The notes under the pieces: generated by a model
What the model saw: the letters and a program-made list of their open reading frames with translations, nothing else
Database searches by the model: none
Told to the model about the DNA's origin: nothing
Part shown: positions 2,384 to 47,129 of the stretch, in pieces
Numbering within the stretch: position 1 is the first letter of the stretch
Layout: every line of letters begins with the position of its first letter
Source of the DNA: Lytechinus pictus
Lineage: Eukaryota
NCBI RefSeq assembly: GCF_037042905.1
Contig: NC_087245.1
Coordinates: forward strand, 31,622,001-31,686,000
Reading direction: 5' to 3'
Length of the DNA stretch: 64,000 nucleotides
Translations under genes and position numbers: made by a program

Positions 2384-5300
2384 ACAAAAAGGCGTATAGA
2401 TATGCAATGACATTGCATTTCATGTACTTTGTTTTAATCTCTCTTTTTATATTTCGATTCATTTCTCTCTTTCTTTATTTTACACATTTGCTGTTTTGTA
2501 TATTGATATAATGTATGAAACTTTCTAACGTTAACAAAAATAATAAAATAAATATTTATGATGTGATAGCCTTTTAAAATTATTTTTCCCAATGGGTATT
2601 ACTATTCATTCATCACTAGAGAGTATTGTTATACTGTTGTATTTATCATAGATGTTGAAATATAGAAATAATGGTAGGGGTTATTGCCTTATTAGTTATT
2701 GCCTTATCATGACAATAATTGTGAACTGAGTTTAGTAAGGTTTGGTAACCTTTTCCTCTTTTTTTTGTTCATCAGTCAACACTACGAAAGAGAGAGAAAA
2801 AAACTTTCCACAGAACAGAGAACCATCTTCTAATATGGATGTATTGGTTGGTAATTACTTGATCTATTGATTTATAACTGTTTGCTTCTATAACCTATTG
2901 ATTGGGAAAAGAAATTGATTGACCTAGTGGTTCGGGAGGAAGGATTATTCAAAGAGGGGGGGGGGGGGGGGCACATTTTCCCGAGGAAAATTTGACTTGA
3001 CAATCAAAACGAAAAAAAGAAAAGTCCTCACTTGTGTACGAATGTCATATTCGCATTAAAAATATATGCTGTGACTTTCAAGGGGGCAAACTTGTGTAAA
3101 GAATGGCATATTTAAATTGAAAATTTTGATTATGGCTCTCAAAGGGGGTGGGGGCACGGGCCGGTCGCCCCGCCCCCTGGATTTTCCACTGGGTTGATAA
3201 TTGATAAATGTGAATGCTTTTGATTATTTGATTGATTGATTGATCAAGTGACTGATGATTATATTTTGCTTGCTTGATTGATTGATTATTTCATTGCTAA
3301 TTGTTGTTTGATTATTGGATGATTACTCGATTGCTAACTATTGTTTACTAAAGTATATAAAGCTATTTTTAACTACCACATAATGGAAATCCAACTGGAA
3401 TGGCCATAATTCTGAAAGAACATAAACGCTAATATCATTTCAAACGGACTGTTTCTATGATTTTTTGTTGTTTATACATTATGTTTATTGATCACTGTAT
3501 GAATGAAAAATCAATTTGACCAACGTTAGTGAATGTCAAATCAAAAGAATTGATAATCTCATGTAATTGAGTTTAACTACTCAATTTGACTCAATTTAAA
3601 AAAAAGGGAAGATTCCAGGGCAGAACATGTTGTACATGGCAACATTTCTAAAAAGTTGTCAATCGGCGAAGCGAGCCTGTGTAGAAGCGGCAATTTCTTT
3701 CAAAGAAAATTTTATCTTATATTGAGTTTGCCGTAATATCCAAAAAATTATAATATTTATCCCTTTCCTTTCCTTCTCTTTTATTGATATCTTTTTTTTT
3801 TAAATCATGATTGTCGATCTTTTTTTTCTTTTTTTTAAGGGGACTGCCTTAAGCCCCCATCAGGCGGATCCAGGGGGGGGGGGGCAAAGCTGGCCCGTGC
3901 CCCCCTTTTGAAAAGCACAATTAAAATTTGTAATGTAAAAGTGTCGTAAAAAATACAAGTGTCCTCCCCCCCTTTTGAAAGTGAAGACCTTCTTTTTTTG
4001 CTTATCAAACTTTTTCGTGGATGAAATGTCCTTGATTTTTGGCAAACAATTTTTTTTCTAAAAAATGTGAGATTGGGGAGATGTGAGTGTAGCTGCGACC
4101 AAGCAAGAAAAGATGTTGCGTTCTCTCTGAAATTACATTTAACCGCCGCACAATAAGGTATTATTTAATGATCATCATTATTTCGTGTCAAAGTATCTAG
4201 TACTGTTTGTGAAGTACATATGCATTTTAAAGAGTAATACTCATTAGTCTCATTTCTACTGTACTGTAGTCCGATCAAACACAGCTGGCTGTATGTTTTC
4301 CATGGGGCAATTCCATGAAATATGTACGTCCGATAGTCCGACCCCATGTTATATGTTGATAAATTGATAAAAAATGAAAAATAGTAATTAAAAAAAAAAG
4401 GTCTGTGGATATTGGACACGAGACAGGCATCGTCTTCTGAGGAGATTCTCATGATCAAAGTTTCGTCCAATCAGAACACTCCTGTCCATTACGTCATTGC
4501 AATTGTCATAAGGGGCTTTCCCGTATCGATACCAATGGACCTTTGTCCACTCATTCACATTTTGTGCGATCTACTTCCTCAAACTTTTGAAGTTCCGTTC
4601 TTCGCGCTGCAGTGGAATGGCAGTGGTAGTTGTAATAGCGACATGGTCATGGAAGTGGGCAGACTACAGAAAAAAACTTAAGTTGTTTCGACCACTAATA
4701 TGCCTGGATATATATTTCAAACCAGGAAACTGTTCGTGAGGCACTTTCAAAGCAGTTCTCATGTATAAGAATGACCATATTCGACTGAAACCTAATTGAG
4801 GAGTAAGCGAGAAGTTCTCCGATTCTTCGGGAGACGGACGGCATGGCGGGAGCTTGGCTGCGGGGCCTAGCCCCTGCACCAACCGGAGGACAAAGCTCGG
4901 AAGTGTGCAAAGCTAGGTGTACTATTAAGTGCAATGCCGATTCTACAACTCAAACTCAGGATTCGCATTTAAGGACACAAAACCACGGCGTTTATTATAG
5001 TTGTTTAGCCAGGCGAGTAAATACAATTTCAAAGCTCCAACACATGTACATATGCCTATGGATAGGTATTTTCATTCTCCTTTGCTGTGTTGAATTGGTG
5101 AGTAGAATATTCACATTCCCACTATCTTTTAAATGCAAATTTGTATTTGTCATTACAATGTTTGTCAAGACCATATGGGGGGCCACCGAACCGTGTATAT
5201 TGTCGTGTACAGAAAGATAAATAATAAAAATTACCACTAGCATCTGCTTGTGAATTTTTGCATGATCAGCCCCAGTTGCCTGGAAACGATTTTTGAAGAG

Positions 5301-26268: not shown

Positions 26269-27421
26269 GTCCCCATCCTACAAAGAGCTGTGTTTGATCT
26301 AATCATCTTGAACCTCATCAATATGGAAATCCCATCTTTGTCATCATTTTTCCTCCCTGAAATTTGGGAAATGTTAAATTCCTTGAAAATGGAAGCGCAC
26401 CAAATTGTCAAGTCAACGATGAAGCGATGAACGTATGAGTATACACCATGTCTAGAAAACATTTAGAACAAAAATGCATTTTAGATGTTCGCGTTGCTGG
26501 CTTTCATACTTGTGGTTATAAATCGCAACGATTTGTAAGACGGGCCCTGTGCTCCATACCATAGGATTGGTCTGGGAGCTGATAGTCCGATTGACCATAC
26601 ACAATGATTATGCAATCATTGAATCCAGGACCAATAAGTGCTAAATTTTATGTCACGGGACACTTGGAGAGAAAAAAAAGACTCCAAAGAAGTTGGGCAT
26701 GGGCGATGACTCGAAAAGCCGGTCACACCAATAACATCAAAAGAATGAGTTGAGATAGACCTGCGTAGTTCAGTGGATTCTGACTCCGATTATTCTCATT
26801 TAAAGTGTATAACTAAGAAATGACGTGGAAGCTTTAAAGTGCCATTCTGCCAGACGAGATGGTGAGATAGTTTATCTTGTCAAGTTATACCTTACCTGGC
26901 AAAATATCTTGCAAAGGCCATTATGAGAAATGGCGACTGAAAGATATCTTGCCAAGTTGTCACGGCAACCTGTATCTTTCAAAGACTTGACTTGGTAATA
27001 TAACTTATGTGACGTTCTCGACAAACAAAGTGAATAATTTGCTACGAGTATATGAAACCGTGTAGGTCAAAGTTGGACGGTGGAAAACAACTGCTCGGTG
27101 TCATATTCTTACTGTTCTTATAGACATACCGTCCTCATTTTGAAAGGTTTTTTGTGGTGTTTAGCGGCCTTGTACATAGAGTTGACTCTGGTGCTAATTT
27201 ATTGATTTGGTTCAACACCCAAACAGTCTGTGGAGTTGTGTTTGATTTCTAGGGTGTATGTTAAAACATGAGCTGAGGGTCTGGTCCTGGATCTAGGGAC
27301 AACACTGGTGTCTGTTTTAATATTTTGGGGTGTTTTTTTACCGCACAATCAACATTGCTTCTTAGGTCTTCTTGTAGACACTATTTTTTCCTGAATATTT
27401 CTTCATTTTTTTTCTATCCAG

Positions 27422-27694
27422 GGTGCGGCCCAGAATGACACAAACATGACAACAACAGAACTTACCACCACCGTCGTGACGACTGAATTGCCTGAAGTCA
27501 CAACCGACCTAATAACCACACTGACTACAGAGGAGAGTAAAGATAATGGTCTCGACAAATGGATCTATGGTGTAATAGCAGCTGGTATAGTGCTCCTAAT
27601 AGCAATCATAATTATCATAATATGCATCAGGAAGAACTGTAGCAGCAGAGAGAAATGTTGTTGCTGCTGCAGAGCGTCCCAACCATCGCCAGTC
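27422..27694 (+). CDS. Transmembrane adaptor-like protein, coding exon A (Thr-rich ectodomain, TM helix, Cys cluster)
   Basis: Polypyrimidine tract and CAG acceptor ending 27421. Reads GAAQNDTNMTTTELTTT...KWIYGVIAAGIVLLIAIIIIIICIRKNCSSREKCCCCCRASQPSPV. Donor GTAAGT at 27695. 273 nt, phase 0/0. ATG at 27446 in AAACATG context; an upstream signal-peptide exon is possible but was not found. Confidence 0.85.
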
Positions 27695-28411
27695 GTAAGT
27701 TCTCGAATCAAATGTGATTTTGATATGCTCAGAAATTCATGTTGTAAGGTCAAAGGTCATATGAGGTCAACATTAAATTTGACCTGCAATACGCTGACCA
27801 TACATCACAGGGTACATTGTGCTGCGGTCACAGCCAAACTTGAATAATGGATGTACTTTGGACAGATTTTTGTTATGGTGCCTTTAGTTAAGAGGTCACA
27901 TGTTCAGGCCTTAGGCCATCAAAGCCAAAGTTCATTTCAGGTCAAATGTTTGACAAAGTGTATTTGATTGCAAGTCTCTTTTATAAAAGATATTTTGCTA
28001 AGAAAAACAAAATCAAACTCTTGATCCATATCCTGCACTGATGGGATTACATTTGTGTTAGAGTGCCATTAGAGGTCACATGGTGAGGTCAAAGGTCATC
28101 TTAAGGTCATATGATCTCTGACCCAGTAACCCTGCTGAAAGCAAACTTGAATGTAGCTGACTAAAAAAAGGTCTCTTGGTTTCTATTTTCGCAGTTGCTT
28201 GGCCAAGAAATAGCTATAACGCCTTTCTAGAATAGATGATGTAATTATCCTCGCACAACTCATTTTATTGGACATGTATATCTTAATGTTTAAAGTGTCA
28301 ATAATGATATATATCCACAAATCTACCAAAAGGCAGGGAAATAATATCTACTTGCATCTTATCAAAAGAAACATTTCCATTTTATTTTCTCTCTTCATTT
28401 GTGATTTACAG

Positions 28412-28438
28412 GATAAGGATTTCACCCAACCAGATAAT
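28412..28438 (+). CDS. Same gene, 27-nt microexon B (DKDFTQPDN)
   Basis: Pyrimidine tract, TTTACAG acceptor and GTGAGT donor at 28439. Phase 0/0, open in frame. Confidence 0.7.
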
Positions 28439-28962
28439 GTGAGTTAAATCTTCACTCTTTAATTTTTGTATATATCAACACACTGTTTGACGATTCAGAA
28501 ATTTTTAACTAAGATTCAGTTTCGTAAAAAACATACAACATATACATGTAATAGCCATGCATAATTACTAAATGGCTGCCTTGATGAATGAAGGAATGAA
28601 TAAATAAACGAATAAATTGATATGATGAATATGTTTAAACGTAATGGTAAAAAAAAGGAGAAAAATAGAGTGATTTTCTTTAAAATGATGTAGACTACAA
28701 ACTCCATAATGTGAAACAGAGTTCAATCAAATCAGAGTTATTCTATTTTACAATCAAGATAGGGAGGCCTAATGTGCTTTAACTGGCAGTTTGTAAATGC
28801 TTATTATTTTGTAAACAGAATATTGTCTCTCTGCCTCCCCCCTCTCTGTATATATATTACATATATATTTCTCTATATATATATCCTCCCTATTCCTATA
28901 TGCCTTGCTTTTACTCCCTCTTTTCCAATCATTTTTCATGAATATTTCTTTCTATCTTATAG

Positions 28963-29016
28963 TCTAGTCACGGTGTGAATACAAGATTTAATGGAGGAAA
29001 CCCCAATAATTTTCAG
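28963..29016 (+). CDS. Same gene, 54-nt exon C (SSHGVNTRFNGGNPNNFQ)
   Basis: Long pyrimidine tract, TATAG acceptor and CAG|GTGAGG donor. Phase 0/0, open in frame. Confidence 0.7.
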
Positions 29017-29392
29017 GTGAGGTATCATAACTGTATATCATTGATGATCCCCACTTTGCTGTCAGAATCTGTGTTAGTATCACTTAGACACTAACACAAA
29101 CTTGAGTACGAAACTTGTAGCATGGTGTGCAACCTGTGAGAGAACAAGCAAAAAGTGCAGGTCATAAATTGATGATTTCTATAAAAATTATTGATTTTGT
29201 GATAGATTTGGCATGTAAATCTTAAGTCAGCATGCTGCCAATGAAGACCTGAAAATTGTATAGAATCCATGAAATACCATTTTTGTAAAAATTGTTGGTG
29301 CACCTCTGCACCAACCTCCAAAACACCCACCGGTAAGCCAGTCCTTTCAAGTTTACACATCTTACGCTTCTTTTTTCCTTCTCTTATGACAG

Positions 29393-29774
29393 GGTGACAC
29401 GCAAATTGAAATGGATCCTCGACAAACTGGCATAGATGACCCTATATATGTAAACACCCCAATCCCAGCATTCGAGGCCCAAGGGAATCCTGGTTACTCC
29501 CACTCGCCACCGGAGTCACCCCTGGATGATGAGATGCCCAATCTTCCTCCGCCGTCTCCCCCTCGAGGAGCAGCTAGCTTCCCCATGGACACCCATCACC
29601 CAACCGGAGGCATCCCATCTCCTTTCATAGCCTTGCCAACCTCCCCTCTAGATGAATTCCCTGATAGATCTCCTCCAGCAATACCTCACCAAGGATCAAC
29701 GGACATCAAGGCAGAACTTAATAATAAACCGAAAAAGAAGGATAAGAGGAAGAAGAGCAAGCCCAAAGCACCAG
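29393..29774 (+). CDS. Same gene, exon D (YVNT motif, Pro-rich, basic stretch)
   Basis: Pyrimidine tract and GACAG acceptor; in frame with ORF 29411-29782. Ends at CAG|GCAAGT (GC donor, phase 1), which matches the phase-1 acceptor at 36903. Confidence 0.8.
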
Positions 29775-29984
29775 GCAAGTAGCCATTTTTTTAAAACCAG
29801 TTTAATACTGTAATTCCCTTAAACTTTGTACAGGTACCACCTGATTCTAGATGGCAGCGGGTTAAGATGTTACATTTCAATTCTCAGATATCTGGACATC
29901 ACAATTTCATTTATTCATTATTTGATTTTTTTAATTGTTTTAATGATATCTATCTTTAGTTCTCACATACTAACAATGTTTTAT

Positions 29985-31553
29985 CTAGTGATAAAACTCC
30001 TCTACAAATGGCAAATGATTTGAACTCCTTCTTCGCTAGTATTTGCACCCAATTACCCCCATTGGACTTGTCAAAATTACCTGCATATCTTCCCGCGATG
30101 TTCCCCCCACCTTTGATAAAGGTGCATGAAGTTTATGCTCGTCTCAAACGCCTCAATGCTTCAAAGGCAACGCAACCTAATGACATCCCTATTAGACTGA
30201 TTAAGGAATTTGCATTGGAACTTTCTTCACCCCTCACTAAAATCTACAACGATTGTCTACGTTCTGGTTATTTTCCCTTGATTTGGAAGAATGCTTCAGT
30301 TTGTCCCGTCCCGAAAGTTCCCAATGTGAGTGATTTCTCTCAACTAAGACCGATCTCAGTAACGCCAGCTTTCGCAAGGATCTTTGAAAGTTTCCTAGCT
30401 GAATGGCTTACTTCAGACCTTGGACATCGCATGGATTGTTCACAGTTTGGCAACTTGAAAGGTAGTTCCATCAATCATTACCTTGTGAGCTTGTTAGATG
30501 TCCTCCAGCGCAATCTTGATAAGCAAGGGCACTATGCAAATCTATGTGCTGTTGATTTTATGAAGGCCTTCGATCTCATAAATCACACATTAGCTATCCA
30601 GAAGCTGATTGGTTCTGATGTGGATACCTCTATTCTTCCAACGGTCTGCAGCTTCCTGACTCATCGCTCTCAAGCAGTGCATTATCAAGGAAAGACTTCA
30701 AGTGCTCTGGACCTCACTTGCGGAGTCCCCCAAGGGACAAAGTTGGGTCCTGTCAATTTTCTTGCCATGATCAACGATGCCGCTTTGACCACTAATAATC
30801 GTTGAAAATACGTGGATGACCCGAGTCTTCTTGAAGTTGTTCGGAAGAACCAAATTGGTGCCATGCAGAGCCATATTGATGCCCAGAGCGATTGGTGTGT
30901 TGAAAACGATGAAATTGAAACCTGAGAAATGTAAGGCTATGCAGTTCAGCTTCATGAAATCTCCCCCTCCTAAAGAGCCTCTTCATATCAATGATTGCCG
31001 TCTGGAATGGGTGGAATCCTTGGTGTTACTTGGAATCACAATCCAGTCGAATCTTAAGTTTGATCGTCAGGTTGAGCTCATGATCTCTCGTACAGCGCGG
31101 CGTTTTTATATTCTTAATGTTCTTAAGAAGCATGGTGCAAGTGTAGATGATTTGGTGACCATCTTCAAAGTCTACATTCGCCCACTTTTAGAATTTGGAT
31201 CACCAGTTTGGAGTTCGAGTCTTACTGCGTTCCAGGTGGAAGAACTAGAACGTGTTCAAAAGCGAGCTCTACGCTGCATTGCATTCCCGAATGTTCTACC
31301 TTATTTCGATCAGCTTACGTTGTACGGACTAAAAACTCTCAAAGAACGTAGAGATGACCTCCTGCTTCGTTTTGGACTTGGGTTACTAAAATCTGAGCGT
31401 CATCGAGATATGCTCCCCCCTACCAGAAGATCTCAGTCCCGCTCGAATGTCCAGCTCCGGAACTCTGAATGCTTGGACATACCATTTGGCAGAACTTGAA
31501 GATACAAGCAATCCGCGATACCACTTATTGTATCTATATTGAATTCACAATGA
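29985..31553 (+). pseudogene. 5'-truncated non-LTR retrotransposon (CR1/L2 group) reverse transcriptase, inactivated
   Basis: RT motifs QFG, DFMKAFDLINH, GVPQGTKLGP and R*KYVDD (stop at 30803-30805). Frameshift near 30908. C-terminal GRT*RYKQSAIP, then final stop at 31551-31553. Confidence 0.92.
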
Positions 31554-32464
31554 TTGTATTGATTTTGTTGTATTTTTTATATTATCACAAACCTTGCTCA
31601 ATTCCTTTATTTTTACTTTCCTTTTTTTTCCCTTTTCTGATCTTTCTTTTCCACTTTTTTTATCCTTTCTTACCCCCTTCTTTCTTCACTTTCCTCTTTT
31701 ACTTTACCTCAAGCGTGTAAATGAGCTTACTGTGATTTTGATTTTGTGCAATATTGAAAGCTTGTTACTGCCATATTTTACCTTGTTAATATTTGAAATT
31801 GTAATGTTTTCTGAACCGGTTTTTATTCCCCGGCAATCCGGTGATTTGCACAATTTTTATTTTTTGGATCAAATGAATGTAACAGTTAACTCTAATGTAT
31901 GTATATACTCAATTTTAATTCGTGCCAAGGCCCATCTTTCTTGCCTTTATCTCATCGACCACACATTTCACCTTTTTTTTCTCTTCATTGACGTATTCTT
32001 GGCATTTTTTTAAATCACTTACTGCTATATTTTTACAAGGTTTTAACCAGCTTTGCGTCCATATTTTCTTACTATTTTTACCCCTTCTGTTGGTCTTCTT
32101 TTCCATATCTTGCCTTCATCTGCCCCTCCTTTACCTTTCCTTTCTGTTTCTTTCCTCCCACTCTTTTCCCTTATCACTCTTTTTTCATCATTCATCCTAT
32201 CCCATCCTCTCTTTTTTTTTTCTTTCTCTTCCTTTTCTCATTTGCTTTTATATTTATGATTCCCATAACATTGGTTTCCTCTCCCTTTCTCTGTTTCCCC
32301 TTTATTTTTGTCCCCGTACTACTTGGTTATACTGTACATGTAATATAGCATTTAATGCCCTAGTTGCGCTCTGTTCGAATTACACTTTCACACTTCTTGA
32401 CGTTTGTACATGCTTCTTTGATCAATATGTTTCTTTTTAAAGTTTCTTTTTTTTCTTTTGGTAT

Positions 32465-35400
32465 TAGTATCCCTAAATTAGACCACAAAAGAGCCAATCT
32501 GGAATAAAATTATTGGAAATGGTTTTTTGACTGATTTGAGTAGGTATGGGTGTCAACATTTACCAAAAAAAAGTTAGGAGGAATACGGGTTGGGGAAAGT
32601 GCTTTTTTCAAGGTCAAAGGTCAATTACCTTTTTGTATATACTGTATAATGGTATCTCTGAGATGGAAAGGCACAGGTTGGTGATAATGGTGTCAAAATG
32701 CACAAATTCTTACCAGAATATCAAATAGAATAAAATTAATTACCTAGAATGCACATTTACCTATAAAATTCAAGGTCAAAGCCTTTCAAAAGGTCAATTA
32801 CCTTTTTACATTATATATCATACCGTATAATGGTATCTCTGAGATGATAAGGTACGTGATGGTGATCATGGTGTCAAAATGTACAGATTCTTACAAGAAG
32901 ATCAAATAAAATAAACTTAAGTACCTAGAATGCACATTCACCAATAAAATTCAAGGTCAAAGCTTTTCAAAGGTCAATGATCTATTTACATTATATACCA
33001 TACTGTATAATGGTATCTCTGAGCTGAAAAAGCACAGGTTGGTGATCATGGTGTCAAAATGCACAGATTCTTACTAGAAGATCAAATATAATAAAATTAA
33101 GTACCTAGAATTCACATTCATGCGTAAAATCTAAGGCCAAAAGTCAATGACCTTTTACACTACATGTATATATACCACATTATATAATTGTATCTCTAAG
33201 ATAAAACGGCGCAGGTTGGTGTTCTTGGTGTCAAAACACACATATTCTTACAGGAAGATAAAATAAAATTAAGCATCGAGAATGCACATTCACCCATAAA
33301 ATTCAAGGACAAAGGTCAATGTCCTTTTTAACATTAGATAATAATAATGGTATCTCTGAGATAAAACACCGCAGGTTGGTGATCTTGGTGCCAAAATGCA
33401 AAGACTTGTACAAGACAATTAAACAACACTAAAATAAGTATAAAGAATAAACTTTCACCCTTGAAATCCTACATCAGAGGAAATATATAATCTATATCAC
33501 ATAAAAATAACCCCAAAAAAATGTTTGTGTTCATATTTTATTTCTGAATAACGTAAATAACCATGGCTAATTTGTAATGAAAACATGGAGGTTTCATAAT
33601 TTCGGTCTGAAATAATGAAGGCCATGGAGAATGTATTTAGGGGTCAGATGTCAATGAGCCCTTTCCAAAATATCAGTGGAAATTTAAAAAATGTTGATAA
33701 CCAAATAACACTTTTTCATATACTGCGATGCATTGCCAAAAGCACTGAAAAAATAAATAAAATCAAGTATATAATTTGAAATGATTTTTATTTTAAGTAG
33801 CAGCATTTAATGCATCATTATATCTAAATCAAGGTTGTCATGTCTTTTCTCTCCAGCGATAGGCCACTCACCTCAATTCTATAATAAATACTATAAACTA
33901 TTAGCTTAATCTTTTGAAAATGGATAGGATAGGTCTAACTCTCATGTCACAGCTAGCATCATCTGAGAGCATTTCCAAACAGCAGAGGGATGATGATGAT
34001 GATGAAATGAAGGCCATCATTAGAGCTGCAGCTTCTGCCATACATGTAGTAAATTACATATATATCAACTTCAACAAAGGTGAATTCCCGTATTATTATT
34101 CATTACCTTTCATCAGTTCATTGCGAACTGCCAGAATCTCTTGTGATGCTAATGTTGCAGGAGAAAACTTCATATCTGCTCTCTCCCGTACGTCACCCAT
34201 GATGCTATTTCTACTAGATATTAGTATGTACAAGGATCATGTTTTTGGTCCAGAACAACTGATTGCTATCATGCACAAATTAGGCATATAACAATGAAAT
34301 TCAAAAGGAGATAATAGCTTACAAGTACACATCCATCGACCTAACAAAAGTCCTACAGCACCACTTCCAGTTCTTGAGAATCAAGCTGTGCAACATATCA
34401 GTCATAATATAGATCCTGGTCTGATATCCCTTGACAGAACGTAAGGCTTTCATTGAATGGGCCAGATAAAAGTCTTGAAAATGTCAGAAGGTTTTCAAGA
34501 GTTCAATTACTCTTTGCTGAAGTTGAGACACTTAACTTCATCTATGACAAATTAGCTGCAGCTCTAATGATTGCCTTATTTTAATTCTTCGTCATTGTCC
34601 CTGGCTATATGAAAATGTTATCGGATGATGCTTGCCCTAAGAGTTAGGCCTATCCTTTCCATTTACAGATTAAGTTATAGTATATATATATATATATATA
34701 GTATTGATTGTAGCATTTGAGGTTAGTGACCTATTGCTACAGAGAAATTAGTACCTTGATTTAGATTTATAAAATGCATATCTAAATGCTACTACTTTAG
34801 GTAACTTCACCATTGTCACCATTTCAAATTATATCACACATGATTTTTTTACACTTTTGTCAATCCATTACAGTATATTATAAGAAAAAGTGCTATTTGA
34901 TCCAATTTTACCTCGGACTTGTATTTTGACATCATAATTGGTCAAGGATTCAACTATTAAATTTGTGTTCTTTTTCCATGCGGGTCAGTCTTTTTTCCAT
35001 CAGAATCACTATACCTACAATACATGCCACAATCACGTTATATCGACCTATTTACTTAAATTCCCTGACGTTATTGACATAGTTGATTGACCTTTAACTC
35101 CTAAATATATTTTCCATGGCCATTTTTTATCCTTATTTCAGAATGAAATTATTTAATAGACTTCCAATGTTTTCATTACAAATAGTTATCTTTCTTTCTA
35201 TTATTTACAAATAAAATGTGAATATAATGGATTAATTTCTTTTTTGGGGGGAATCATGCATGGATATATAAATATCTATCAACTTTTGACCTTTGACTTT
35301 GGATATTGGATTATTCTGTATGATTACTTTGAGTCTTTTTTATCTTCTTGCAAAAATTGCTTTTTGCCATCAAAATCACCAACATGCAGCGTTTTATCTC

Positions 35401-36306
35401 AGAGATACCTTTATATGATATATAGCCTATGTAAAAAGGTTATTGACCTTTGACCTTGAACTTTATGGATTAATATGCATTCTAGGTGATTAACTTTATC
35501 TTATGTGACCTTCCTGTAAGAATCTGGGCATTTTGATACAACGATCACCAACCTGTGCCGTTTCATCTCAGAGATACTATTATACAGTACGATACATAAT
35601 GTTAAAAAAGGTCATTGACCTTTGAAAGGCTTTGACCTTGAATTTTATTGTTTAATGTGCATTCTGGGTACTTAATTCTATTTAATTTGATCTTCCTGTA
35701 AGAACCTCTGCATTTTGACACCAAGATCACCAACCTGCACCTTTTCATCTCAGAGATACCATTATACCGTATATGGTATACAATGTAAAAAAAAAGGTAA
35801 TTGAGCTTTGAAAGGCTTTGACCTTGAATTTCATTGGTGAATGAGCATTGTAGGTACTTGATTTGATTATATTTGATATTTCTGTAAGAACCTCTGCATT
35901 TTGAGACCAAGATCACCAACCTGCACCTTTTCATCTCAGAGATACCATTATACCGTATATGGTATATAATGTAAAAAAGGTCATTGAACTTTGAAAGGCT
36001 TTGACCTTGAATTTCATGGGTGAATGAGCATTGTAGGTACTTGATTTTATTTTATTTGATCTTCTTGTAAGAATCTGTGCATTTTGACACAATGATCACC
36101 AACCTGTAATATTTTATCTGGGAGATACCATGATACAGTATATTTAAAAAGGTCATTGACCTTTGACCTTGAAAAAAAGCACTTTCCCCAACCCGTATTC
36201 CTCCTAACTTTTTTTTGGTAAATGTTGACACCCATACCTACTCAAATCAGTCAAAAAACCATTTCCAATAATTTTATTCCAGTTGGTTACTAATTACGGG
36301 ATACTA
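32465..36306. mobile_element. Non-autonomous Academ-type DNA transposon with about 1.5 kb inverted arms
   Basis: Termini TAGTATCCC...GGGATACTA with 3-bp TSD TAT (32462-32464, 36307-36309). Arms about 32465-33942 and 34640-36306, each containing ~180-bp tandem units. Transposase-like remnant in the centre. Confidence 0.8.
33990..34462 (+). pseudogene. Degenerate Academ-like transposase fragments
   Basis: HVFGPEQLIAIMHKLG and VQHISHNIDPGLISLDRT*GFH*MG resemble the HxFGSxxLIxxLHxLG and QxxxDNxDxxxxTLDGxxTFHGMG motifs I recall for Academ transposases. Contains stops and frame changes. Confidence 0.6.
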
Positions 36307-36903
36307 TATATCTTTTATGATTGTGTAATATGATTATCGGTTGGTTGTAATTTTTTGCTTTTATTTCATCTTTATAATATTGTAATTTGCCTTTGTTTAT
36401 ACTGTGCACTGGATTTTTCAGTCTTTGGACTGTTTTGCCAGTTTTCTTATTGAATAAATACCATACTACTACTACTACTACTTTCTATGAGTTTGTGAAA
36501 TATGAATCGCGTGATAAATTGAAGAATTTTTCCAGCAAGACAATCACAATGGGTATATTGGTGTTTTGCTGACCTTGCTGAAGTTAGCAGCTCTGAACTA
36601 CAGTCTCAACTAACCATCTTTGGGGTGGGGATGGGTTCTTGCAATGCAAAATTATGCCAGGGAATATTAAAAATGTGCAAACCAGACAAACGTGATGCAA
36701 TTCAAGTTTAGTCTGTCTTCTTGTGTAAAATTTAGCAATTTGGATAAATGCCTTAAGAAACTGATTATTTTCATTAATATATCAAGGATCCTTCAGAAGT
36801 GTGTAGTAAATTTTTCATACAATTATCAATCCCTATATGATCTTTAGTCAGTTTTGATATCTTAGTATTTCAAATGTATCATCTCCTTTGTTAATCTTTG
36901 CAG

Positions 36904-38036
36904 AGCGTGTCATCGATCCAAACGAACAGATAAGGGAGGATGTTCCTCGAGGACCCACTAGTCCACCTAAATTTGATTTCAATCCACATCTTCCAGGGCA
37001 GAAAAATGAGGGTGATTTTGGAGAGAATTATGAAGAGATGTCGCCCATACCCAGTAGCCCTGTCAGAGGAATGTCCCCCAGGCAGCCAAGAGATGTGGAG
37101 TTTGGTGAAGACTACGAAGCTGTTGGTGATGAAGGTGATGACTTTGATGGTGAATATGAAGTAATGGATCCAAATGCACTCCCTCAAAAGCACAATATTC
37201 ATACGCCTTCTCATTTTACGGGAAAACGCAATCAGCCTCCAATAATTTCACCCCCTGTGCCATCAGAAGATTATGGTGGTGATTATGAAGAAATGTCCCC
37301 CAGCGAAAGACCAAGGCATCCAAAACCAGGTGGAGATATCGAACATCGTCCACAGATACCAATCCCTTCTCACAAGGGGGATGATGATTTTGGTGGGGAT
37401 TATGAGGATGTCGACAAGCCCTTCATCTTGCCGAAGAAGAAACCTCCAAAGGCCAAACCTAAAACTCAAAAGAAACCTATGAAGGTTCCAGTGGTAGAGG
37501 ATTTTGGACAGAACTACAGTAACACAGGCCCCGGTGCCATCTCTTCTAATACCGCAATGGAACGACGCCCACCATCTCTCCCCTCTTCAAATTTCCCCAA
37601 AAGTCCCATAGCGTTACCAAAAGAAGAGCTGCCACCTCCCCCTCCTGAACTTGATCCGCAGCCCTCTTCACCATCACACCAATTTGATTATGGGGGACAG
37701 TATGACGATGGTGAATTGAAACCAACTAAGAAAAAGCCGCCAGTGTTAAAACCCAAAGTAGCCATCAAACCCAGTATTGGCAGTGCGACACTTCCGGTTA
37801 ATCCCAAGCAGCTGAGATCACCGATGGAAGCACGGTCATCTGCCACTCTTCCTCCTATATCTGGGAGCAGTGAACCGGGAGAAGAGGCAGAAGAAGATGC
37901 AGTTTACATGAATTACTCACCAGACCAAAAGCAGAGACCCACAAAAGATTACTACAACCTTCCTGTTCCAGCAAAGAAACCCAAGGAGATTATCAGTAGC
38001 AGTGGGTATTCATACTTCAGTGAACTTCCAAAGTGA
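36904..38036 (+). CDS. Same gene, terminal coding exon E (acidic Tyr-motif repeats, Pro-rich)
   Basis: TTTGCAG acceptor ending 36903 at the start of the 382-aa ORF. Repeated (D/E)FG(E/G)(D/N)YE(E/A/D)(M/V) motifs, YMNY, YYNL and PxxP clusters. Stop TGA at 38034-38036. Confidence 0.9.
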
Positions 38037-40599
38037 TGTAGCAGTTGGTGTGAGCATTGATCAGGGAAACCCAAGCAGATCATTGGAGTTTGCTGTACCT
38101 TGGTAAACTCCCAGAATGATTGCTCTGTAATTACTTGGGTGTTGATTCCGACTGCAGCTGATGTTCCCAGAGGACTAGACCCTATGGTGTTAAAATTACA
38201 CACATTAGAGTTTGAATAGCAAAGGTGCCGTATAACACCCATTCAGTTGTGTTGAACTAACACCAAACTTAAAGATTGGAGTAAAATGACTGGTGTGGTC
38301 ATCTATGTGCACTGCTGAACACCACAGTTTTTGTTGCGTTGAATTGAACTTCAATCATGGCTGCTATTCATAAAGTCAAGAATTCCATCATGTAAACGTG
38401 TTTAAAAGTTAAGTTGTTCTAATACTTTCCCAGAAGCCACTTGTTTTGATAACAATTGTTTTTTTAGCTTACATGGGTGCTTCTCAAACCTGTTTACATG
38501 AATTGTTTATAGGTTTATGACTAAAAAAGGATGTCCTGCATTTTGAACCAATTGGACTTCACACCACCTGTTATATTTTTCACCTAATATTTTTCTGGTA
38601 GTTATTTTTCAAGACTTTAATCTGAGTAATATGTCAACACCTATGACCACACTTGTCTGCAATCAGACATCTGCCTGACATAGCAACGTCAGGTTCTTGC
38701 TCTATGATTATACAGATGAAAGATGGAGCGATAAGAACCAAACATGATTAAAGAGGTGGGGCGGGAATATATCTGGTGCTGCAGGGGCTTGGGAAAGACT
38801 TGATGATTTCTTCTTGTATATATTATTCAGTACTATTCATTTTGGTTCCTACAAATGGAGTATTAAGTACTGAGAACTCATTTATGTAGTTTATTATTAA
38901 TTGAAATTGATGATGATGATGTTGACGATGTTGATGGTGATGATGATGCTGCTGCTGATGATGATGATGGTGGTGATGGTGATGATGATGATGGTGGCGG
39001 TTGTGGTAGGTAATGATGATAATACCCAAAATGTTATGGTGCCATATGTATCTATTTAAAACACCTAAATTCAAAGACTCCTCCAATGCTGGCCTGTTGG
39101 CGCTTATATACAACTGTTCCCCATTTGATAGGACTTGCTATGTAGGCAAATTTCCTCTCCTAAATGTCATTGTTATTACAAGTTATTAGACGTGAAAGAG
39201 TATCAAAGTCTGGTAGATAGCACAGTTACCACAAATAATAATGCTTTTGAATGAGGTTTCTTCAATTCATTCAATCAGCAAGCTCGAGTCAGGCACTTTT
39301 ACTGTAATCAGTGTGACCATGAGCGTGTCTGGGGTCGATGGAAACCTTAGAGGCAGATGGACTTCCAAAGGCCATTAATACCTTTTGTCAGACAACCTGC
39401 TACTGTCGATCCTCCTTTAAGTATGTTATTTAACATGTTGGTTGTCTTTTACTGATAGAGTAATGCATTTTAATTGATCATGGAAGATCAAAGGTTATTT
39501 ATACAGATTGTGGAATGTTTGAACAAAGGTTTCTTTCTAAACGATAGCATGTAATATGAGCCTAGGTGAATATCGGTATTAAAGATATTTGAATGACACA
39601 GAGACATTATGTTTGTAGCCTGAAATACAATGATTTCATCTCAATGCACCCATCAGCAAAACCGAGAGCGCAATATCATTTGGATTTATCAATGTGATCA
39701 AACTAATATCATGAACATTGAGCAAGTTTGGACCCTTCATATTATGTCAAAATGGAATTTGTATTCCCCTATTAAAAAAGATCCACTTCTATTCTTTCTT
39801 TTTAAATTGGATTAAGCTAGAAAAGCCCCTGTACTCAGTGGATGTCACCCGGAGTCATTGAAATCAAAAGTATTGTTTACATTTGATAGCTCAACTATGG
39901 CGGGCTAAATTTGACACAAGTTGTATGGAAAAAAAAAAAAAAAATTTAACTGTGATTATGAGGCAAGGGGTCCATTTCACAAAGCTGTTTGTAGGTTTAC
40001 ACATGACATTGCAACAGTCTCTCAGTCATCACAATATTCAAAGTAACGTAAGTTCACAGTTAAGTCGCAGGGTTAGTTTTGTGTATTTTAAATGACTGAA
40101 CTGCAAGGATATATATTTATTTATTTTACAGAGAAATAATTCATACCCTCCGTTTCATCACTACTCATTTATTCTCCAAGACGATGAAATTGAAATATCG
40201 TGTTGAGAAGGAAGTTTCGAGATAGTGTACAGCTTGAACATATAATTTTTTCATTGACCTGATCTATCATTTAAACTTTTTAAATGCTGCAAACTCAAGT
40301 AGTTGGATATCGTAAAAAAGTTTGTAGATCTTAGGATTATTTTATATTGAGTTTGCCATTGATATGATTCCTTGAGTTAGCATTTAGAAGGAAACAAAAT
40401 CTCAACATTGTGTTGTCCAAGCTTCTTCTTAGATTTATGCTCGTAAATTTATGAATGCATATTTTATGAGAAATCGAATATTGGGGAGAAAGTAGTTCAA
40501 CAAGGATCTTGGCTCATGGTGGTTGTACCCAGACCTATGCATCAATTTTTTGCTTTTGATATATATTTTGTTGTCATGTGCTTCATTTATCATAGCCAT

Positions 40600-40810: not shown

Positions 40811-43059
40811 TCGTACAATATATTCATATTAAAGATTTTTTTTACCTCAATCTGTATTTGTAGGCCCACATGTATATTTCTAATTGTATTGCATATTGCT
40901 GAACCTTTTTATTTCTGAATACAAGGAATTTTTTTTTATTTGAAACCATTAACACTGAATGATTCCTTTGGATTTTTCTAAATACCATAGTTTCCTTATA
41001 TAGCCCTCCATCTAGAAAATTCCATCTTGTATATCCAAAACATAATCAAATCTGATCAGATATACATGTTTTCTTTAAAACAAATCTTTGGTGCATGTAT
41101 CATGCTAACATGCTATTTTACTAAAGGGACATGTAAGAAAAATGACATTAGATACTTTATAATGTGCCATAAATATAACTTGGCACAGGTATGAGGAAAC
41201 AATGTCTTTATTAAAAAACAAACTGAAGAGGTCGAGTTCATTATGCATGATCTATTCATACTCTAGTGATGTGATAATTCATATTCTGTCACGACATACA
41301 GTTTTAATGGTCACAAAGTTATTTTAGGCTGGACTTCCTCAGTACTGAACTGTTCTTTTATTTTATGTTCATGTTGCAGACTAAATCATAGTCTGTTGAA
41401 TATATTCCTATATCAACAGACATATATATACACCAAAGTCTGGAAGTTAAACAGGAATTTGGTAATGAAAAGCAGGGTAATTTATAATCATTTTGTGTGA
41501 CTATGTGTACTTCCTGTAAACCAAAAATATATATTTATTGTTTTATGATACATAGTGTAGGTATACATTGTAACATATTAAGCAACATGTATTAATTTCC
41601 CACCTCTTAAAACATTACCTGATCAATTTGTATATTAATCTGGTTCTATAAACGTTTTTACCATTTATAGTAGACGTAGTAGCAGGAGCAGCAGCGGTAG
41701 TATTGGAGTAGTATAAGTATAGTAATATGTCTAGCAGTATTTGCCTAAGCTACTACTAAGCCTGTTACTATAGAAGTATATGTAAAACGGGTAGTATATT
41801 ACCAGTTGTCTAGGTGGGATGGTTAAGAAGCCAGTAACAAAAACTTGTGCAAAAAAAGATCAGTGCGATCAAACACTACGTACACGAAATTAGATTGTCC
41901 TAATAGCAGAGAGCATTTTGACTTCAATGCTATAGATACATTGACTTTAACATGCATACCCCAGCACTTTTCTGCAATGATTAAGTACTATCTTTCAAAG
42001 TAAGATAGGACCATATATATATTATTGTTGAATTTAATTACAAAAAGTAGTGAGTATGTCCAAAACAGTTCTGAGATTTTTTTTCTTTGATAAAAATTAA
42101 AGACGAAGATATTTTCAGACGTCATTAACACACATGTTTTCTTTTATGCAATAATATTTAGTGAAAATGATTTTTGAACTATTCCTGTATTACTTGTATT
42201 ACTGTGGGACATGTTTCCATAGCAGTTGCATTTTTGTTGGGCAATATTCTTAGCTGTGTCTATTGCTACAAAGATGCATATTGCACATGTACTTATTGTC
42301 AGTACTTCAATGGGATTTTCAACTGTATTTTATATCACTACTTTGTACTTTTTACACAAATATTATCAAATTATATATTCAAAAGAAGAATCTGTACTCA
42401 TATTATTCCTATACATCATATTATATGTACCCAAGGTACCCAAGAATATGCGTACAAACTTTTGGAGAGTTATACATTTTAATCAGTATGAAATGTAAAC
42501 TTTATATTTGTATATCGGAATAGGCATATGGATGTTACAGTTTTCTAGTAAAATTTGTTTTTGATGGTCAAAAGCAGTTTATTTTTATGTAGATGAAATA
42601 TACTTTAGCTATGAACTGAGTGTTTTAATGAAATAAATTTGATCACATTTGTAAAAAAAAAAAAAAGGTTATGTGAATACATATTTTATTTTGTGTGGAT
42701 TTACCATGACGATATTTTATCACGCAGACAGTTTTTAGCAACTGATAAGATGGTTCAAATACTGTTGGTTAAAACAAACTGCATGCAAAATGAATTGAGA
42801 TTTTCTTCACCAACAGTTGGTTAGTTCATAATTTAACATGTACAAACACACTGGCCCGAATTCTGAAGTCAGGTGTAACTTAGACCATGGTCTAACTCTG
42901 TGCTAAAACTATGGGAAGCCAAAAAACGTAAAAAAATCAGCTCACATTGTATATTTCTTATATGTACTATTTTGTTTCCCTTTGATTTCATAATGAAGAA
43001 AATATTTAAGTTATCATTTTGAGACAGTTATAAATGATTTGAGTGTCATAAGAGTTTCC

Positions 43060-46000
43060 ACACACAATTGCTCATGTGCACACCTTCCCACACTTAATCA
43101 GCTCCTGTGTATACCCTCCCAAACCCAGTCAGCTCTTGTACACAACCTCCCTCAATCAACTCATGTGCGCACCCTCCCACACTCAATCAGCTCATGTACA
43201 CACCCTCCCACACTCAATCAGCTCCTGTGTATACCCTCCCACACTCAATCAGCTTATCTACACACCCTCCCACACTCAATCAGCTCCTGTGCACACCCTC
43301 CCACACTCAATCAGCATATCTACACACCCTCCCACACTCAATCAACTCATGTGCACATCCTCCCACACTCAATCAGCTCTTGTACACAACCTCCCTCAAT
43401 CAACTCATGTGCGCACCCTCCCACACTCAATCAACTCATGTGCACATCCTCCCACACTCAATCAGCTCCTGTGCACACCCTCCCACACTCAATCAGCATA
43501 TCTACACACCCTCCCACACTCAATCAACTCATGTGCACATCCTCCCACACTCGATCAGCTCCTGTACACACCCTCCCACACTCAATCAGCTCCTGTGCAC
43601 ACCCTCCCACACTCAATCAGCTCCTGTGCATACCCTCCCACACTCAATCAGCTCCTGTGCATACCCTCCCACACTCAATCAGCTCCTGTGCATACACTCC
43701 CACACTCAATCAGCTTATCTACACACCCTCCCACACTCAATCAACTCATGTGCACATCCTCCCACACTCAATCAGCTCCTGTACACACCCTCCACACTCA
43801 ATCAGCTCCTGTGCATACACTCCCACACTCAATCAGCTTATCTACACACCCTCCCACACTCAATCAACTCATGTGCACATCCTCCCACACTCAATCAGCT
43901 CCTGTACACACCCTCCACACTCAATCAGCTCCTGTGCACACCCTCCAACACTCAATCAGCTCCTGTGCACACCCACACTCAATCAGCTCCTGTGCACACC
44001 CACACTCAATCAGCTCCTGTGCACACCCTCCCACACTCAATCAGCTCCTGTGCATACCCTCCCACACTCAATCAGCTCATCTAAACACCCTCCCACACTC
44101 AATCAACTCCTGTGTATACCCTCCTACACTCAATCAACTCATGTGCACATCCTCCCACACTCAATCAGCTCCTGTACACACCCTCCACACTCAATCAGCT
44201 CCTGTACACACCCTCCACACTCAATCAGCTCCTGTACACACCCTCCCACACTCAATCAGCTCCTGTACACACCCTCCCACACTCAATCAGCTCCTGTGCA
44301 TACACTCCCACACTCAATCAGCTTATCTACACACCCTCCCACACTCAATCAACTCATGTGCACATCCTCCCACACTCAATCAGCTCCTGTACACACCCTC
44401 CACACTCAATCAGCTCCTGTGCATACACTCCCACACTCAATCAGCTTATCTACACACCCTCCCACACTCAATCAACTCATGTGCACATCCTCCCACACTC
44501 AATCAGCTCCTGTACACACCCTCCACACTCAATCAGCTCCTGTGCACACCCTCCAACACTCAATCAGCTCCTGTGCACACCCACACTCAATCAGCTCCTG
44601 TGCACACCCACACTCAATCAGCTCCTGTGCACACCCTCCCACACTCAATCAGCTCCTGTGCATACCCTCCCACACTCAATCAGCTCATCTAAACACCCTC
44701 CCACACTCAATCAACTCCTGTGTATACCCTCCTACACTCAATCAACTCATGTGCACATCCTCCCACACTCAATCAGCTCCTGTACACACCCTCCACACTC
44801 AATCAGCTCCTGTACACACCCTCCACACTCAATCAGCTCCTGTACACACCCTCCCACACTCAATCAGCTCCTGTGCACACCCTCCCACACTCAATCAGCT
44901 CCTGTGCATCCCCTCCCACACTCAATCAGCTCCTGTGCATACCCTCCCATACTCAATCAGCTCCTGTGCATACACTCCCATACTCAATCACCTCATGTGC
45001 ACACCCTCCCACACTCAATCAGCTCCTGTACACACCCTCCACACACTCAATCACCTCATGTGCACACCCTCCCACACTCAATCAGCTCCTGTGCACACCC
45101 TCCACACACTCAATCAGCTCCTGTGCGCACCCTCCCACACTTATCAGCTCTTGTACACACCCTCACACCCAATCAGCTCCTGTGCACACCCTCCCACACT
45201 CATCAGCTCCTGTTCACACCCTCCCACACTCAATCAGCTCCTGTACACACCCTCCACACTCAATCAGCTCCTGTACATACACTCCCACACTCAATCAGCT
45301 TATCTACACACCCTCCCACACTCAATCAACTCATGTGCACATCCTCCCACACTCAATCAGCTCCTGTACACACCCTCCACACTCAATCAGCTCCTGTGCA
45401 CACCCTCCAACACTCAATCAGCTCCTGTGCACACCCACACTCAATCAGCTCCTGTGCACACCCACACTCAATCAGCTCCTGTGCACACCCTCCCACACTC
45501 AATCAGCTCCTGTGCATACCCTCCCACACTCAATCAGCTCATCTAAACACCCTCCCACACTCAATCAGCTCCTGTGCATACACTCCCACACTCAATCAGC
45601 TTATCTACACACCCTCCCACACTCAATCAACTCATGTGCACATCCTCCCACACTCAATCAGCTCCTGTACACACCCTCCACACTCAATCAGCTCCTGTAC
45701 ACACCCTCCACACTCAATCAGCTCCTGTACACACCCTCCCACACTCAATCAGCTCCTGTACACACCCTCCCACACTCAATCAGCTCCTGTGCATACACTC
45801 CCACACTCAATCAGCTTATCTACACACCCTCCCACACTCAATCAACTCATGTGCACATCCTCCCACACTCAATCAGCTCCTGTACACACCCTCCACACTC
45901 AATCAGCTCCTGTGCATACACTCCCACACTCAATCAGCTTATCTACACACCCTCCCACACTCAATCAACTCATGTGCACATCCTCCCACACTCAATCAGC

Positions 46001-46762
46001 TCCTGTACACACCCTCCACACTCAATCAGCTCCTGTGCACACCCTCCAACACTCAATCAGCTCCTGTGCACACCCACACTCAATCAGCTCCTGTGCACAC
46101 CCACACTCAATCAGCTCCTGTGCACACCCTCCCACACTCAATCAGCTCCTGTGCATACCCTCCCACACTCAATCAGCTCATCTAAACACCCTCCCACACT
46201 CAATCAACTCCTGTGTATACCTTCCTACACTCAATCAACTCATGTGCACATCCTCCCACACTCAATCAGCTCCTGTACACACCCTCCACACTCAATCAGC
46301 TCCTGTACACACCCTCCACACTCAATCAGCTCCTGTACACACCCTCCCACACTCAATCAGCTCCTGTGCACACCCTCCCACACTCAATCAGCTCCTGTGC
46401 ATCCCCTCCCACACTCAATCAGCTCCTGTGCATACCCTCCCATACTCAATCAGCTCCTGTGCATACACTCCCATACTCAATCACCTCATGTGCACACCCT
46501 CCCACACTCAATCAGCTCCTGTGCACACCCTCCATACACTCAATCACCTCATGTGCACACCCTCCCACACTCAATCAGCTCCTGTGCACACCCTCCACAC
46601 ACTCAATCAGCTCCTGTGCGCACCCTCCCACACTTATCAGCTCTTGTACACACCCTCACACCCAATCAGCTCCTGTGCACACCCTCCCACACTCATCAGC
46701 TCCTGTTCACACCCTCCCACACTCATCAGCTCATGTGGATACCCTCCTACACTCAATCAACC
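43060..46762. repeat. Minisatellite with ~28-32 bp unit CACACTCAATCAGCTCCTGTGCACACCCTCC and higher-order repeats
   Basis: Over 100 tandem units. Diagnostic variants recur at 608-bp (44112, 44720) and 1493-bp (44720, 46213) spacing. Confidence 0.97.
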
Positions 46763-47129
46763 CGTGAAGCTGAAAACTTTTGATATCTAAACCTGAGTAG
46801 AGACAATCTAAGGATTGTTTGTAGGAATTAATTAAGAACATGCATATTTCACTAACCAATATTGATGCGAGCGCGAAGCGCAAGCTGAATTTTTTTTCTG
46901 TTCAGACCTGATTAAAGAGGGGCAATCTAAGGATTGTTTGTAGGATTTCTCTGATGACCACCAAATGATACGAGCGCGAAGCTCGTATGATATTCGACCA
47001 GAAAAGGGGGACATTTTAAGGACTGTTTTTAGGAATTCATGAAGATCGAGCATATATCTCATCAATCGACTTTTAATGCGAACGTGAAGCTCGGAGTGAA
47101 TATGTTTTTTTTTTGTAATCAGACCTTAA

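Follow-up and report, generated by a model that had tools for sequence, protein, structure and literature searches.

Does a sea urchin encode a counterpart of the vertebrate immune transmembrane adaptors such as LAT and PAG? The question is raised by a stretch of 64,000 nucleotides of Lytechinus pictus (contig NC_087245.1, positions 31,622,001 to 31,686,000, forward strand; hereafter the window), in which an initial annotation had proposed, between positions 27422 and 38036, a LAT/PAG-like adaptor working as a raft-anchored phosphotyrosine hub. Our results show that the locus is a genuine, spliced and unstudied sea urchin gene on the + strand. As regards its product, the reading that we favour, and hold to be somewhat more probable than not, is a type I membrane glycoprotein that serves as a multivalent phosphotyrosine scaffold, binding SH2 proteins of the Grb2 type and others. 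The hub part of the earlier proposal thus withstood the tests put forward with it, on transcripts, ectodomain and orthologues, whereas membership in the LAT/PAG-like raft adaptors did not.

The gene comprises six exons and encodes two hydrophobic segments, a short cysteine-free stalk and a disordered tail of about 550 residues. Its exons other than exon 2, which is divided further below, are as follows.
4843..5097, + strand: first coding exon, supported by the 5' ends of the contigs and by tblastn to L. variegatus and S. purpuratus.
28412..28438, + strand: exon 3, a 27-nt micro-exon of phase 0-0, supported by junction reads and contigs.
28963..29016, + strand: exon 4, 54 nt, phase 0-0, supported by translation and junction evidence.
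29393..29774, + strand: exon 5, with the first YxN motif, a Pro-rich region and a Lys-rich patch; GC donor at 29775.
36904..38036, + strand: last coding exon, with the bulk of the disordered tail; stop at 38034-38036.

The five exons originally proposed (27422 to 38036) read through in frame, giving 622 codons plus the stop and 614 residues from the first Met in the exon at 27422. This 614-residue product is identical to the RefSeq model XP_063956503.1 (Lytechinus pictus), called 'cell surface glycoprotein 1-like', in which the first exon's coding portion is missing. The gene, which domain-based annotation was expected to miss, is present in public annotation, though only under meaningless automatic names. 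The acceptors are canonical, and the donors are three GT and one GC, intron 29775-36903 being of the GC-AG type. As anticipated, spliced transcripts join the proposed exons: two contigs, 3264 and 3238 nt long and each from a different study (runs X1 and X15), cover all four proposed junctions, and both run on in a 3' untranslated region (UTR) beyond 38800. In addition, raw stranded reads of a third study, oriented as expected of a + strand transcript, cover three of the four junctions (3, 3 and 4 reads in X19; 1, 1 and 0 in X20), with no raw read on the GC-AG junction at a depth of 2-4. These mappings covered window 27000-38800, with exon 1 outside it, and drew on four of the 21 listed runs, with some 6% of each of X19 and X20 read; the run index has no run on record as RNA. 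The micro-exon is missing in one S. purpuratus model (P0013 versus P0014) and in one Diadema model (P0018 versus P0023). An in-frame indel polymorphism was also observed at window 36947, where the L. pictus model P0003 has 11 additional residues and two X20 reads carry inserted letters. The gene is single-copy: candidate paralogues (L005, L028-L031) were rejected, as these matches outside the locus are look-alikes of the stalk or helix only, in unrelated proteins.

Position 27422, initially taken as the start of the gene, is actually a splice acceptor, lying after a polypyrimidine tract and CAG. The loose 5' end of both contigs corresponds to window 5067-5096, with one match within the window, and in both of them a first exon located about 22 kb upstream ends at 5097 and is spliced to 27422, with the donor GTGAGT at 5098. 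In tblastn the exon matches residues 1-85 of L. variegatus at 87% identity and residues 29-64 of S. purpuratus at 45%. It begins with a 67-codon basic, Cys-containing extension from the ATG at 4843, followed by the ATG at 5044 and a hydrophobic segment that runs into the Gly-Ala-Ala-Gln opening the exon at 27422. Both ATGs are in frame: the one at 4843, in strong context, adds 85 codons (707 residues in total), and the one at 5044, in weak context, adds 18 (640 residues). S. purpuratus shows the same arrangement, and Diadema one comparable to it. A large folded ectodomain encoded upstream, which would have made the protein an ordinary receptor, was considered and rejected, since exon 4843-5097 is the sole upstream coding exon and the contigs reach about 445 nt 5' of the junction. 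The 5' leader in the contigs (4653-4842) contains upstream ATGs at 4700, 4761 and 4771, opening frames of 22, 12 and 5 codons, which could exert translational control.

Compared on hydrophobicity scales, the first segment is weak (19-mer Kyte-Doolittle values of 2.15 and 1.94, below 1.5 in Diadema) next to the true helix (3.1-3.7), and because of this difference we infer that it is a cleaved signal peptide, the cleavage site after Gly-Ala-Ala being assigned by the small-residue (-3,-1) rule. The protein would then probably be of type I, with a glycosylated stalk of 43 residues, and not leaderless as LAT, PAG and LIME are. Every full-length model, however, carries an in-frame extension of 50-99 residues ahead of the first hydrophobic segment, which leaves room for a long-leader or a two-pass form. 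In the two-pass form, a variant compatible with the scaffold reading, translation would start at ATG 4843 and the uncleaved first segment would leave both ends cytosolic, with a glycosylated loop of about 45 residues between them. The strong context of that ATG as opposed to the weak one of ATG 5044, the extension shared by all full-length models and the 32-residue helix at 59-90 of the AlphaFold2 model point in this direction; we nevertheless regard the variant as unlikely, given that, by the values above, the segment would make a marginal membrane helix, and that in each of the three genera the small residues following it are compatible with a peptidase site.

Exon 2 encodes the remaining membrane-proximal features.
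27422..27559, + strand: first part of exon 2, with the predicted cleavage site and a 43-residue Thr-rich stalk having two sequons and no Cys.
27560..27625, + strand: transmembrane helix, single and strong (Kyte-Doolittle 19-mer 3.6).
27623..27670, + strand: basic, Cys-rich juxtamembrane segment with seven Cys, candidate palmitoylation sites.

The precursor has 64-131 residues ahead of the transmembrane helix, and the predicted mature stalk measures 41-48 residues, contains 33-41% Ser/Thr and two N-glycosylation sequons, and is free of Cys in all three genera. Such a stalk would be N- and O-glycosylated, and would act in spacing or sorting, not as a ligand-binding fold. The one strongly hydrophobic helix that had been foreseen was confirmed; in the AlphaFold2 model of the L. 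variegatus protein it spans residues 129-163, with a predicted local distance difference test (pLDDT) of 75-83 at its core, and, provided that the first segment is cleaved, it would give the protein the transmembrane helix of raft-type adaptors. The cluster of seven juxtamembrane Cys described for L. pictus is present, but it is confined to the two Lytechinus species and the run is not conserved, three Cys being found in S. purpuratus and four in Diadema P0023. These residues may be palmitoylated. A CxxC within four residues of the helix is absent in L. pictus (C-x4-C) and S. purpuratus (C-x4-C-x-C), and only Diadema P0023 has it. The two Diadema antillarum models P0018 and P0023 are identical at 51 of 87 positions over stalk plus helix and at 506 of 512 over the tail. 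This split could stem from a stalk exon that is duplicated or alternatively used, from alleles that have diverged strongly, or from gene conversion affecting the tail. No second stalk exon was found in the L. pictus genome, where two models are 81/83 identical in this exon.

The cytoplasmic tail carries the motifs on which the scaffold reading is built.
29447-29458, + strand: first YxN motif (YVNT), in exon 5.
37014..37412, + strand: a cluster of five acidic Tyr repeats that resemble one another, with the consensus D/E-F/Y-G-x-x-Y-E-[EDAV]-[MV].
37515..37526, + strand: second YxN motif (YSNT), retained in the forms YGNT and YTNT.
37629..37646, + strand: Leu followed by five Pro, an Ena/VASP EVH1-type ligand, kept in S. 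purpuratus.
37905..37961, + strand: two YxN motifs at the C-terminal end (YMNY, YYNL), retained in the forms YENL/YQNL and YMNL/YRNL.

The tail, 18% of which is Pro, yielded no Pfam domain above cut-off, and a sequence search of the PDB returned nothing under E 0.65. In the AlphaFold2 model of the L. variegatus protein, built from a shallow alignment of eight rows, pLDDT is below 50 for 613 of 720 residues and helices are confined to 59-90, 110-120 and 129-163; FoldIndex gives positive values in 29 of 494 windows, and for the Diadema protein the Atlas model reaches a pLDDT of 0.41. By these predictors the tail is disordered and, like that of raft-type adaptors, it is long and combines Tyr motifs with the lack of a catalytic or folded domain. 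The four YxN and three YxxM motifs reported for L. pictus are all there; the estimate of about ten Tyr motifs is right for Tyr in motif context, out of 17 Tyr in the tail, and the predicted ELPPPPP stands as an EVH1-type ligand in which five Pro, not six, follow Glu-Leu. This Leu-Pro5 motif has no counterpart at the equivalent position in Diadema. The assignments follow the Ena/VASP EVH1 ligand consensus and the SH2 preferences of YxN, YxxM and acidic motifs. In 2000 shuffles of the L. pictus tail, YxN motifs were expected 0.80 times and YxxM motifs 0.34 times, against four and three observed, and YxN motifs exceed the shuffles in all four proteins tested (4-5 versus 0.7-0.9). Searched with the usual patterns, an immunoreceptor tyrosine-based activation motif was found in none of the four proteins, and the corresponding inhibitory motif (ITIM) in S. 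purpuratus only, at chance level, and not in L. pictus. Two L. variegatus models (P0010 and P0012) differ by one acidic Tyr repeat unit, which indicates that the number of repeats varies.

Orthologues were recovered in L. variegatus (78% identity), S. purpuratus (44%) and Diadema antillarum (about 29% over the best local stretch), and correspond to the RefSeq models XP_041468647.1, XP_011670295 and XP_071480345.1, whose automatic names have no functional meaning; P0002 is a tail fragment near the S. purpuratus orthologue. A profile search of 1.84 billion representatives gave seven hits, of which the named ones (two of seven) are all from sea urchins, and recovered the Diadema orthologue at only E 3.9e-23. 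Two hits, P0019 and P0022, match stalk and helix only and were discarded as probably due to chance, while P0020 and P0021 resemble single-exon fragments and were excluded from all conservation counts. A word-index search with a Diadema-led alignment, of whose 8000 scored candidates one was returned among the matches listed, is weak evidence on deeper relatives. In the searches made, orthologues were thus found only in sea urchins.

In an alignment of L. pictus, S. purpuratus and Diadema (A4), 9 of the 17 tail Tyr are identical as compared with 89 of 535 other residues (p=0.0009), and comparison residues fare worse (6/93 for F/L/I/M/V, 1/19 for Phe). The Asn at Tyr+2 is kept at all four sites, whereas three of the 22 remaining Asn are (p=0.002), so that all four YxN motifs retain both Tyr and Asn across the three lineages. 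Among the acidic repeats, four of five are kept across the same lineages, the +3 position shifting among Met, Val and Ile. When the tails alone are aligned with S. purpuratus, 13 of 17 Tyr are kept (p=0.02 against all residues). These comparisons show selective conservation of the tail tyrosines and of the Asn at Tyr+2 at the level of aligned sequences, in agreement with the prediction that sea urchin orthologues would keep the Tyr motifs.

Several observations weigh against the scaffold reading. Tyr is a generally conserved residue, and tail-only alignments with Diadema keep just 6-8 of the 17 (p=0.06-0.26 against all residues); the counts vary with the aligner, and aligners anchor on the very motifs that are counted. 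Having arisen by internal duplication, the acidic repeats are not independent of one another, and shuffle p-values make too much of them. The Met at +3 preferred by p85 is fixed in all three lineages at only one of the three L. pictus YxxM sites, and PxxP motifs are not in significant excess in L. pictus (21 versus 16.8, p=0.13). Moreover, Tyr-motif tails are not rare, as an unrelated immunoglobulin (Ig) receptor of the same genome (L030) has one.

From phosphorylation onward, the mechanism of the proposed scaffold is one that we infer. A separate receptor would activate a cytoplasmic tyrosine kinase of the Src, Syk or Abl type, which would phosphorylate the tail tyrosines lying in acidic context. 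The four pYxN sites could then bind Grb2-family SH2 domains, with Ras/SOS or GADS/SLP-76-type output, and the pYE[ED][MVI] repeats could bind SH2 domains of p85, Src-family or Nck type. The Pro-rich stretches would in turn bind SH3 and EVH1 domains, and signalling and actin regulators would cluster at the membrane. At least 50 SH2-domain matches were found in the genome. Feature neighbours of the Diadema orthologue in the Atlas include A36R (0.82), a LIME1/PAG cluster (0.79) and SCIMP (0.78), although Atlas scores are leads only here, being all below 0.9.

The sea urchin protein shares with LAT, NTAL/LAT2, PAG/Cbp and LIME one helix, juxtamembrane Cys and a long tail of Tyr motifs without a catalytic domain, but differs from them by its signal-peptide-like exon, the glycosylated 43-residue stalk and the lack of a conserved CxxC. 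In this regard, transmembrane adaptors are defined, in PMC4861716, by an ectodomain of few residues, one helix and a Tyr-motif tail, and raft-type adaptors, in PMC2194115, by a juxtamembrane CxxC, LIME being a leaderless type III protein. The screen described in the latter counts signal-peptide proteins as false positives (PMC2194115). The spliced upstream exon with its hydrophobic, signal-like segment (cleavage predicted) does not agree with a leaderless type III protein, and a CxxC 0-4 residues after the helix is lacking in L. pictus and S. purpuratus. The predicted stalk of 41-48 residues is within the 5-50 residue window of the screen (PMC2194115) and far above the 'few amino acids' of the general definition (PMC4861716), and the tail of about 550 residues compares with 295 residues for the whole of LIME (PMC2194115). 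In line with this, the Pfam families LAT, LAT2, PAG, LIME1, LAX, GAPT and SCIMP gave no match at E<=10 in the 10 proteins scanned, and SIT reached a sub-threshold match in one of the 10 (a Diadema model; E 0.044, 14.7 bits versus a cut-off of 27.6). None of the seven profile hits is named as a vertebrate adaptor. A search of the genome with the LAT and PAG families gave no match and is uninformative, as the controls could register neither family; TMEM154 (PF15102) matched stalk and helix only, at best with 21.1 bits (E 3.1e-4), below its cut-off of 30.3. The LAT/PAG-type membership initially assigned is hence not upheld, on account of the signal-like exon, the lack of a conserved CxxC and the failure to find homology to vertebrate adaptors; the protein may resemble LAT in function and is not classed as a member of the family.

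Other systems offer partial parallels. SIT1, a SHP2-interacting, non-raft transmembrane adaptor protein (TRAP), has a leader peptide and a short glycosylated ectodomain; the sea urchin protein differs from it in having no ITIM in L. pictus and no ectodomain Cys for a disulphide dimer. EVI2B (CD361), TMEM119 and opalin combine a glycosylated Ser/Thr stalk, one helix and a disordered tail, and are Atlas neighbours at 0.76-0.80, scores that shuffled proteins also attain; their clusters are far shorter (141-282 residues). The tails of vaccinia A36, enteropathogenic Escherichia coli Tir and nephrin are likewise unstructured and mix Grb2 sites with acidic pY-D/E-x-V sites. Known Nck sites are pY-DEV in Tir and pY-DSV in A36 (PMC9333988). 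There is no homology to these tails; in most sea urchin repeats position +1 is Glu and position +3 is Met, Val or Ile, and Nck binding is putative here. Any likeness of action to LAT/NTAL, the nephrin tail or vaccinia A36 would most likely be due to convergence.

Among alternative explanations, a mucin-like surface receptor or co-receptor resembling EVI2B, CD43 or snail PTC deserves the most attention. Here stalk or helix would recognise a ligand or partner chain and signal through the same tail, making the protein a receptor and not a passive adaptor. The signal-peptide-like exon and the stalk features shared by three genera (41-48 residues, 33-41% Ser/Thr, two sequons) agree with it, as does the presence of EVI2B and TMEM119 among the Atlas neighbours (below 0.9). 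The two Diadema models, which differ at 36 of 87 stalk-plus-helix positions and share 506 of 512 tail positions, display the pattern expected if the outside diversifies. Furthermore, single-pass genes arranged in clusters in a snail resistance region bear similar weak TMEM154/SIT labels (PMC10875847), and the design is probably recurrent. A stalk devoid of Cys, with no predicted fold beyond a low-confidence helix, fits a recognition role poorly, however, as do L. pictus models identical at 81 of 83 positions in the stalk exon and the failure to find a second one, and we consider a receptor rather unlikely.

The tyrosines could otherwise be mainly YxxΦ sorting signals for AP adaptors, or part of linear motifs regulated on Ser/Thr, with little SH2 signalling, in a trafficking or structural membrane protein. 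YEEM, YEVM, YEDV and YYNL do fit the YxxΦ consensus, and Yxx[ILMV] occurs six times versus 2.25 in tail shuffles; yet one or two motifs suffice for sorting while nine are conserved, and the YxxΦ rule leaves unexplained why the Asn at +2 is kept at four of four sites even with Thr at +3, which makes this a very unlikely account. Least probable, in our view, is a highly diverged true orthologue of a vertebrate adaptor (LAT, NTAL, PAG, LIME, SIT or LAX). Vertebrate transmembrane adaptors evolve fast, the motif grammar is similar, the SIT match of one Diadema model (E 0.044), though sub-threshold, covers the helix and what directly follows it, and deeper kin could be invisible to a profile that finds the Diadema orthologue itself at only E 3.9e-23. 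Against this stand the seven profile hits among 1.84 billion representatives, none named as a vertebrate adaptor, a topology unlike the leaderless type, and no TRAP Pfam family at E<=10 in any Lytechinus or S. purpuratus protein scanned.

The multivalent phosphotyrosine scaffold remains our preferred reading, and we describe the gene as a member of an unstudied echinoid family with good evolutionary support for such a function and a corrected N-terminus. No published description of the gene was found under six identifiers, and no paper on an invertebrate transmembrane adaptor, in searches that left most subscription journals and all supplements outside; the accessible part of PMC3492796 has nothing on invertebrate PAG-like scaffolds. 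In amphioxus, PMC5431462 describes an SLP-76 complex with no LAT-like molecule and proposes an unknown membrane recruiter. The eggs of sea urchins and starfish depend on Src-family kinases to release calcium; the upstream role is filled, in Xenopus, by a raft protein that crosses the membrane once (PMC4307238). One may speculate, though we think it quite unlikely, that the family is the sea urchin functional stand-in for LAT in coelomocytes or a Src-family/PLC-gamma dock at the egg cortex. If so, it would recruit Grb2/GADS, SLP-76 and PLC-gamma to activated receptors of coelomocytes, or act at the egg cortex at fertilisation, and would imply that a transmembrane adaptor had evolved independently within the invertebrate deuterostomes, a group in which a recruiter had been postulated but had not turned up (amphioxus; PMC5431462). 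The divergent Diadema stalk exon would, in that case, wire one tail to different partners. Being single-copy, borne by a tractable model animal and provided with defined tyrosines that can be mutated, the gene offers a concrete candidate, and illustrates how domain-based annotation leaves scaffolds with meaningless names and truncated N-termini.

Regarding the genomic context, an ARHGAP40-like RhoGAP gene is located on the same strand, 117-150 kb downstream of the stop, and this neighbourhood, matching that of S. purpuratus, supports orthology. A fusion with RhoGAP, suggested by the old S. purpuratus model P0016, was rejected as a merged model, the RhoGAP exons being 117-150 kb away and the contigs passing the stop into the UTR. 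The upstream neighbours are an exon of an angiotensin-converting enzyme-like peptidase M2 (L022:1980-2381) and, without a Pfam match, a possible first exon of a thioredoxin-domain gene (L021:2830-3246). Elsewhere in the genome, L030 (G000:C5:17303015-17306224) has a 669-codon frame for an Ig-like receptor that seems to lack introns and likewise carries a Tyr-motif tail. The GC-AG intron contains a broken reverse transcriptase remnant of the long interspersed nuclear element type on the same strand (29960-31499; RVT_1, E 6.4e-12), together with a tandem array of units of about 180 bp and its inverted copy (32480-33420 and 35400-36280) around a 2-kb core; these arrays are multi-copy and resemble a non-autonomous transposon with long terminal inverted repeats. 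On an intronic stretch of 39 nt (28071-28109), each run stacks some 500 stranded reads that are loose at either end; the stretch is a short repeat common to an abundant RNA from elsewhere. Finally, a strand-skewed minisatellite at 42997-46790, with stop-free frames of up to 901 codons, is probably non-coding.

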